From the NCBI RefSeq assembly GCF_030384885.1, contig NZ_CP128613.1: 64,000 nucleotides of DNA; one strand, 5' to 3'. The notes under the pieces are model-generated. The model saw nothing but the letters and a program-made list of their open reading frames with translations, searched no databases and was not told the origin of the DNA. A program made the position numbers and the translations under genes. Source of the stretch: Escherichia coli (lineage in GTDB: Bacteria; Pseudomonadota; Gammaproteobacteria; Enterobacterales; Enterobacteriaceae). This document shows positions 61,013 through 61,317 of the stretch, one piece after another; position 1 is the stretch's first letter; each line of letters begins with the position of its first letter.

Positions 61013-61317
61013 ATGGATGATAATATAAAAAAACCAAGAACAGAAAAAACATTAAAGCAAAAGGTTGCTTTTGCTCAGCTTGAACTTAATCGTCTTAAGT
61101 CTCTGGAAAAATCAGAACGAAAAAAGTTGAAACAAGGCTAAAGATTATACTTGGTGCGGAAGTGGCTAAGGCTATGCAGTGTGATATCGAACAGGTGGAT
61201 AAAGAACTCGTTATGGGGATTTTGCTTTCAGCATCTGACCTGAATGATATTGAAAAAATAACGTATATAAAAGCAGGCAGAAAGTTTCTTGCTCAAATGG
61301 ATGGAAGACAAAAATAA
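61013..61317 (+). pseudogene. traD-like small conjugal transfer protein, apparently frameshifted
   Basis: 42-codon ORF MDDNIKKPRTEKTLKQKVAFAQLELNRLKSLEKSERKKLKQG stops at 61139–61141; the -1 frame continues KIILGAEVAKAM...; junction at an A-rich tract. Confidence 0.55.

Follow-up and report, generated by a model that had tools for sequence, protein, structure and literature searches.

Results

The split traD gene and its neighbourhood

The window, a stretch of 64,000 nucleotides of Escherichia coli DNA, ends in a mobilisation module in which a small conjugal transfer gene, traD, is split between two reading frames and is flanked by a relaxase gene and two pilus genes:

58888-60369, minus strand: intact gene for a MobA/MobL (MOBQ) relaxase of 493 aa (PF03389, E=2.6e-54)
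60370-61012, no strand: divergent intergenic region from the relaxase gene to traD, candidate oriT and promoters (hairpins, repeat)
61013-61317, plus strand: traD pseudogene of the PF06412 family, 101 aa when intact (Pfam match, alignment)
61013-61141, plus strand: first open reading frame, TraD residues 1-38, then LKQG out of frame and TAA (translation)
61120-61125, plus strand: A6 tract, site of a 1-nt deletion (alignment and tract census over loci L001-L030)
61120-61126, plus strand: A_AAA_AAG heptamer, in phase (CGA AAA AAG; simulated -1 slip product identical to P0024)
61126-61317, plus strand: TraD residues 39-101 in the -1 frame, with the invariant ETRLKIILGAEVAKA core (translation, Pfam, alignment)
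61713-62270, plus strand: gene for a PilS/bundlin-like pilin of type IVb, situated downstream of traD (PF08805, PF05307)
62323-63759, plus strand: PilV-like pilus tip adhesin gene with a Shufflon_N domain (PF04917)

The earlier note had described a 42-codon frame ending at a TAA, with a continuation in the -1 frame, and the sequence, the list of open reading frames and a three-frame translation reproduce this arrangement. The first frame starts with the ATG at 61013, encodes the 42-aa product MDDNIKKPRTEKTLKQKVAFAQLELNRLKSLEKSERKKLKQG and stops at 61139-61141, while the -1 frame is open from about 61099, reads ...KKVETRLKIILGAEVAKAM... and stops at 61315-61317. Both frames overlap across the A6 tract, inside the string 'cgaaaaaag' at 61118-61126. 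All residues but one of the first frame are identical to the N-terminus of intact 101-aa proteins, and restoring one A gives CGA AAA AAA GTT and the sequence ...SERKKVETRLKIILG..., as found in the intact proteins; the repaired product is identical to P0024, an intact natural protein. A separate C-terminal frame of 47-51 aa, starting at GTG 61162 or ATG 61174, was considered and rejected as a functional product, as it lacks both the invariant ETRLKIILGAEV segment and a convincing ribosome-binding site. The same traD contains a second A7 run at 61027-61033, which arose by the exchange R7K (AGA to AAA) and is specific to the K7 allele; it is intact in the window and represents another potential slippage site.

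The relaxase gene, annotated as 'MobQ family relaxase' in E. coli relatives, is transcribed divergently from traD, and positions 60370-60720 of the spacer between the two hardly vary across islands that show 5-8% difference in their genes. This spacer contains several hairpins, including GGCCC-GTAA-GGGC (60669-60681) and TCCCGCC-GTAA-GGCGGGA (60700-60718), with a z-score of -2.55 for the single-strand DNA fold, and upstream of traD the 15-nt direct repeat ATGTGTTGCAC(A/T)ATT at 60760-60774 and 60891-60905 (131 bp apart), which could be a protein-binding site. Judged by these features, the mobQ-traD spacer is likely an oriT or a regulatory region. A search of 60200-61800 against Rfam returned nothing credible; the RSF1010-type nic core TAAGTGCGCCCT was absent from the spacer at up to 3 mismatches, and its matches across the window stayed below the number expected by chance.

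The surrounding genomic island

The module is part of an island of about 22 kb, which extends from 43870 to beyond the window end at 64000, is inserted at tRNA-Ser(cga) and adjoins mtfA. Its left end is marked by two features:

43794-43883, plus strand: tRNA-Ser(cga), the insertion site, with its final 14 nt (43870-43883) repeated at the opposite end of the island
45214-45432, plus strand: AlpA-type recombination directionality factor (RDF; PF05930, E=9.5e-19)

The right end lies outside the window and was seen in copies of the island from other assemblies. Copies 99.98% identical to the window have a P4-type integrase gene there (L004, 9885-11102), next to which a CAP12-type TIR protein is encoded. 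About 165 bp after the integrase gene follows a second copy of the 14-bp terminal repeat CCCTCTCTCCGCCA (L004, 11267).

Defence genes make up the cargo at 46832-48682 and 53608-55705, namely a NACHT-domain NTPase and a Thoeris pair, of which ThsA has SIR2 plus STALD/SLOG domains and ThsB a TIR domain. Two genes of the H-NS family (46172-46459, plus strand; 48894-49298, minus strand) encode one protein with the N-terminal domain only (H-NST-like) and one full-length homologue, in agreement with reports on EARL and serU islands, and a DUF6387 protein is also found on the island. Directly upstream of ThsA lies a 320-aa frame (52470-53432, plus strand) that has no Pfam match. Type IV secretion system genes were not seen in the examined part of the island. 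Outside the island, a 1347-aa frame (33208-37251, minus strand) with a TTG start, perhaps N-terminally truncated, sits between shiA and another long frame; by eye, the former looks like a repetitive adhesin of the invasin/intimin type and the latter like the carbamoyltransferase HypF.

In its gene content, the island matches the published family of Enterobacteriaceae-associated ROD21-like (EARL) islands. Published accounts name as conserved modules of this family an integrase with an RDF, a MOBQ relaxase with TraD for conjugation, and a pilin with a pilus protein (PMC6035254, PMC10763509), and each has its counterpart here: a P4-like integrase and an RDF at opposite ends, a MobA/MobL relaxase with TraD (frameshifted here), and a PilS/bundlin with a Shufflon_N PilV-like protein. 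According to one of these sources, EARL islands lack a type IV secretion system and depend on a helper plasmid, the transfer of ROD21 having needed pSLT, and the H-NS homologue Hfp comes from the serU island of UPEC (PMC6035254).

Family assignment and conservation of TraD

The proposal of a small TraD-like protein in the earlier note was borne out by profile searches. Against Pfam family PF06412 (TraD; gathering cut-off 22.3 bits), the second frame alone scored 43.8 bits (E=2.3e-11) over profile positions 2-61 of 62, and the joined 101-aa product scored 41.8 bits (E=9.6e-11), so that the two frames do not represent a chance pair. The single uninterrupted frame of about 100 aa that typifies the family is present in relatives and broken in the window by a 1-nt deletion, which makes the window copy a pseudogene of this family. 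It is linked to a MOBQ-type relaxase gene across a putative oriT, the conserved spacer measuring 643 bp. A search of NCBIfam gave no family match for TraD.

A 601-nt query around traD matched 526 complete E. coli genomes, chromosomal in all, and the matched feature is annotated as 'conjugal transfer protein TraD' in every record listed. All three E. coli records examined carry an intact 101-aa traD in the context mobQ-traD-pilS-pilV. The alignment with intact traD-like genes that the earlier note had proposed found fused homologues in abundance; these are 101-103 aa long, cover 98-100% of the joined query and occur in E. coli, Salmonella, Klebsiella, Citrobacter, Serratia, Erwinia, Yersinia and Edwardsiella. 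In an alignment of 30 sequences, with identities down to 56%, the protein is encoded by one frame throughout, and 32 columns on both sides of the break are invariant, including T13, Q16, K17, L25-K29 and the block E40-G48 (ETRLKIILG). An AlphaFold model (pLDDT 73) consists of a long helix at residues 14-55 and two short helices. The frameshift at residue 38/39 consequently falls within one helix of the model, cutting this single predicted helix directly before the most conserved segment. Neither a PDB sequence search nor Foldseek with the model against the PDB gave a meaningful match, and with a simple helical model we assign no mechanism on the basis of the fold.

A one-nucleotide deletion in the A tract

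In the alignment with three intact E. coli genes, the only gap is one nucleotide long and falls precisely within the A tract, at the A-rich string to which the earlier note had assigned the break. The window has A6, strain CI5 has A7 and the other two strains have AAAGAAA, which differs from A7 only by a synonymous AAA/AAG lysine codon, and the window is accordingly short of one A. Most relatives carry AAAGAAA and near-identical intact islands A7, while distant homologues encode SLSKSAE at the tract position, so that the A-run is not a conserved feature of the family. A 41-nt megablast query with AAAGAAA found 78 genomes among 5,426 complete E. coli genomes; the corresponding A6 and A7 queries were masked by the low-complexity filter (the A7-carrying CI5 went unmatched), and their lack of hits is no evidence of absence. 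A metagenome scan with a variable-gap pattern yielded four contigs, all AAAGAAA, too few for frequencies.

Carriers of the A6 and A7 alleles

Carriers were collected by exact-sequence look-up in a collection of 15 billion proteins, after which the DNA of the carrying contigs was fetched. In the cluster table, 22 contigs are listed for the truncated product of 42 aa (P0001, CAD6032770.1) and 8 for the repaired protein of 101 aa (P0024); the contigs read number 24 for the former and 14, with A7, for the latter. Also present is P0002, the truncated product of the CI5-type allele, with R7 instead of K7. The nine A6 places shown stem from nine different samples of unrelated projects (ENA, NCBI, Logan), and the expected tract was found in 9/9 A6 loci and 7/7 A7 loci.

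The islands carrying A6 are 99.7-100% identical to the window over 55013-64000. The seven A7 loci belong to this island as well. For two short ones among them, the indel is the only difference from the window, and it is likewise all that separates the A7 locus L013 from several A6 copies across the 9 kb common with the window. Two SNPs in these 9 kb, at 57321 and 62390, are informative. Outgroup CI5 and all A7 copies have C/C, whereas the A6 copies have C/C (L004, L007, L009, L005), C/T (L006) or, in the window, T/T. A single deletion event with later substitutions suffices for these states, and the simplest history would be one A7-to-A6 deletion on the C/C background followed by two C-to-T changes; under this history, the window is the most derived A6 member. 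Among the copies compared, a small sample, A7 was not found on a derived SNP background, i.e., reversion was not seen. The A6 lesion is real, sits in this tract and is inherited, in this lineage apparently from a single origin. In the A6 copy L005, some 20 differences are clustered within 300 bp (equivalent to 56796-57100 of the window), which suggests a small recombination tract.

Further losses of traD in related islands

The same loss of one A was found on three further contigs that carry a CI5-type island, about 5% different in the flanks and with a 505-aa relaxase and other cargo. The tract is evidently mutable, and the A7-to-A6 loss seems to have arisen again on the CI5-type backbone. 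Gene conversion instead of a second slippage is conceivable, the two traD alleles being identical downstream of codon 15, but it would require two islands in one cell and is the less simple explanation.

Other islands have lost traD by nonsense mutation. In L023/L026 and in L025, which represent two backbones, codon 36 changed from CGA to TGA, and one of the resulting truncated products, P0156, is on 14 contigs; in L024, codon 16 changed from CAA to TAA. In L024, no relaxase gene is called upstream of traD, and in L025 an extra 116-aa frame (2483-2833) lies between the conserved spacer and traD. Intact TraD sequences are far commoner, single sequences being found on 874, 605, 237, 151, 118 and 106 contigs, and the small minority of broken alleles fits sporadic decay of a non-essential gene.

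A slippery heptamer at the deletion site

Deleting one A from CGA AAA AAA G automatically places A_AAA_AAG in phase, and the product of a simulated tandem -1 slip at 61120-61126 is identical to the native P0024. In the literature, this heptamer ranks as the most shift-prone of E. coli, with frameshifting above 1% even for ordinary genes (PMC5009743, PMC10861913). The elements that stimulate programmed sites were not detected: the 50-121 nt that follow downstream are no more stably folded than shuffled sequences (z = 0.0 to +1.35), and by inspection there is no Shine-Dalgarno-like or GGAGG-like motif upstream of the heptamer.

Discussion

In this study, we describe a split traD gene on a chromosomal defence island of E. 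coli. We interpret it, with a probability of roughly 85%, as a genuine, vertically inherited loss-of-function allele, i.e., an ordinary slippage pseudogene. Of the options raised in the earlier note, the pseudogene is the one we favour, given a deletion that is real and inherited and intact relatives that carry A7 or AAAGAAA. Replication slippage would have taken one A from A7, turning CGA AAA AAA GTT into CGA AAA AAG TTG. As a result, only the first 38 residues are translated as in the native protein, the invariant ETRLKIILGAEVAKA core is lost from the product, and translation stops four codons later, the expected outcome being little or no TraD.

What this loss could mean for the island depends on the role of PF06412 proteins, which we deduce from a distant relative, the TraD of the Agrobacterium Ti plasmid. 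By analogy, the island protein would be a small relaxosome and oriT accessory protein, the partner of the MOBQ relaxase, acting at the oriT/promoter region between the divergent genes. Its loss could weaken relaxase-dependent mobilisation and/or end an autoregulation of the two divergent promoters, those of mobQ and traD-pil. Otherwise the island appears intact, including the relaxase, pilS, pilV and RDF genes and, in identical copies, the integrase gene. In ROD21, deletion of the relaxase gene SEN1980 left the transfer frequency unchanged (PMC3976249). With some helper plasmids, the island may not need this module, and the mutation may be nearly neutral, which would also account for the sporadic decay of traD.

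The in-phase heptamer adds a qualification to the interpretation as a pseudogene. Unprogrammed -1 slippage probably still yields full-length TraD at a low level, and the A6 allele may be a strong knock-down rather than a null allele, possibly a leaky pseudogene; the heptamer could even supply enough TraD for function. A further-reaching alternative, which we consider distinctly improbable, is that the A6 allele is throttled, with slippage giving a few percent of native TraD and the A7/A6 tract serving as a heritable and potentially reversible dial of mobilisation, comparable to the reviewed cases of a 'savior indel plus compensatory frameshifting' (PMC5009743). If this were true, the mobility of a defence-carrying island would be lowered yet rescuable, and the excess of broken over intact K7 copies would reflect selection for reduced mobility.

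Also distinctly improbable, in our view, is a phase-variable switch, in which A6 and A7 toggle reversibly by replication slippage and are kept to turn island mobilisation off and on. This idea, which the earlier note had put forward as a slippage-based switch, could draw on the coexistence in nature of A6 and A7 versions of otherwise identical islands, on the independent loss of an A from the same tract on a second backbone, and on the predominance of broken over intact copies within the K7 allele (22 vs. 8 contigs recorded, 24 vs. 14 read). However, a tract of 6-7 nt is short, known contingency loci having longer ones, and the long, conserved and uninterrupted tract of such loci was not found here: most family members have the synonymous, interrupted AAAGAAA, and SLSKSAE is encoded at this position in distant homologues. 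One event explains the SNP pattern, with no reversion on derived backgrounds, no A8 products are on record, and other lineages inactivate traD irreversibly by nonsense mutation.

In the other form that a slippage-based switch could take, programmed recoding, -1 frameshifting would serve as the switch. We regard it as very improbable that the site is programmed, i.e., that -1 frameshifting delivers the 42-aa peptide and full-length TraD at a set ratio, as in dnaX or IS911. Like those sites, traD presents this correctly phased slippery heptamer, which is of the type X_XXY_YYZ and is rated above all others in E. coli for frameshifting; a slip would join the frames productively and restore native TraD. 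It differs from them in having neither a 5' Shine-Dalgarno element nor a 3' stem-loop, in not being conserved and in stemming from a recent deletion, of which the heptamer is an automatic result. Homologues outside the clone are encoded by one uninterrupted frame, and the two-frame arrangement is limited to two very recent lineages. With neither a stimulatory structure nor a Shine-Dalgarno-like element, and with a tract that is not conserved, any rescue would be incidental leakiness.

Least probable is an error of sequencing or assembly, which the earlier note had also considered and by which the true sequence would be A7 and the gene intact: homopolymer miscounts are a common artefact, and none of 192 complete E. 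coli genomes matching a 91-nt query at a coverage of at least 80% was 100% identical to it, but this explanation is effectively excluded by the reading of A6 in nine different samples from three repositories (identical on all 24 contigs read), near-identical islands in other samples being consistently A7, A6 copies sharing derived SNPs with the window as a real clade would, and independent assemblies repeating the break rather than giving one continuous frame.

The locus combines features of known kinds, namely a traD gene of the family PF06412, an island of the EARL family and a frameshift in a homopolymer. For the most part, it is another slippage pseudogene among the accessory genes of mobile elements, in an island family that has been described. 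Nevertheless, the A6 allele offers a clean clonal marker for the E. coli lineage with the Thoeris/NACHT defence island at serU, and it suggests a reduced mobility of this island copy. The natural A6/A7 pair, one base apart, represents an isogenic system for studying the role of TraD and the MOBQ relaxase in EARL transfer. The locus is also a natural example of an indel creating E. coli's best -1 slippery heptamer in phase, a reminder that 'frameshifted' is not always 'null'.

Among described islands, ROD21-like islands are the closest counterparts, and they have in common with the island studied here the AlpA RDF, H-NS homologues, a TIR protein and a P4-type integrase. The insertion site here is tRNA-Ser(cga), with a 14-bp terminal direct repeat, whereas ROD21 integrates at tRNA-Asn; further differences are the frameshifted traD and a cargo composed of a Thoeris system and a NACHT NTPase. 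The gene set of relaxase, TraD, pilin and PilV-like protein is the same in ROD21 of S. Enteritidis, ICEKp258.2 of K. pneumoniae ST258 and the serU island of UPEC (PMC6035254, PMC10763509, PMC3976249).

At the level of the protein, the TraD of the Agrobacterium Ti plasmid (traCDG operon, next to oriT) belongs to the same Pfam family, for which the island protein scores above the gathering cut-off. Both are small proteins encoded divergently from a MOBQ-type relaxase gene across a putative oriT. In work by Cho and Winans (2007, as cited in PMC4700958), the Ti-plasmid proteins TraA, TraC and TraD reportedly autorepress the divergent promoters. The two proteins are, however, distant homologues, a TraC partner was not identified on the island, and a chromosomal mobilisable island is set against a conjugative plasmid. 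With the TraD of the F plasmid, a type IV coupling protein, the island protein shares the name only: the former, with about 700 aa, is a large ATPase of the membrane, whereas the latter, at 101 aa, is predicted to be all-helical and has no NTPase domain.
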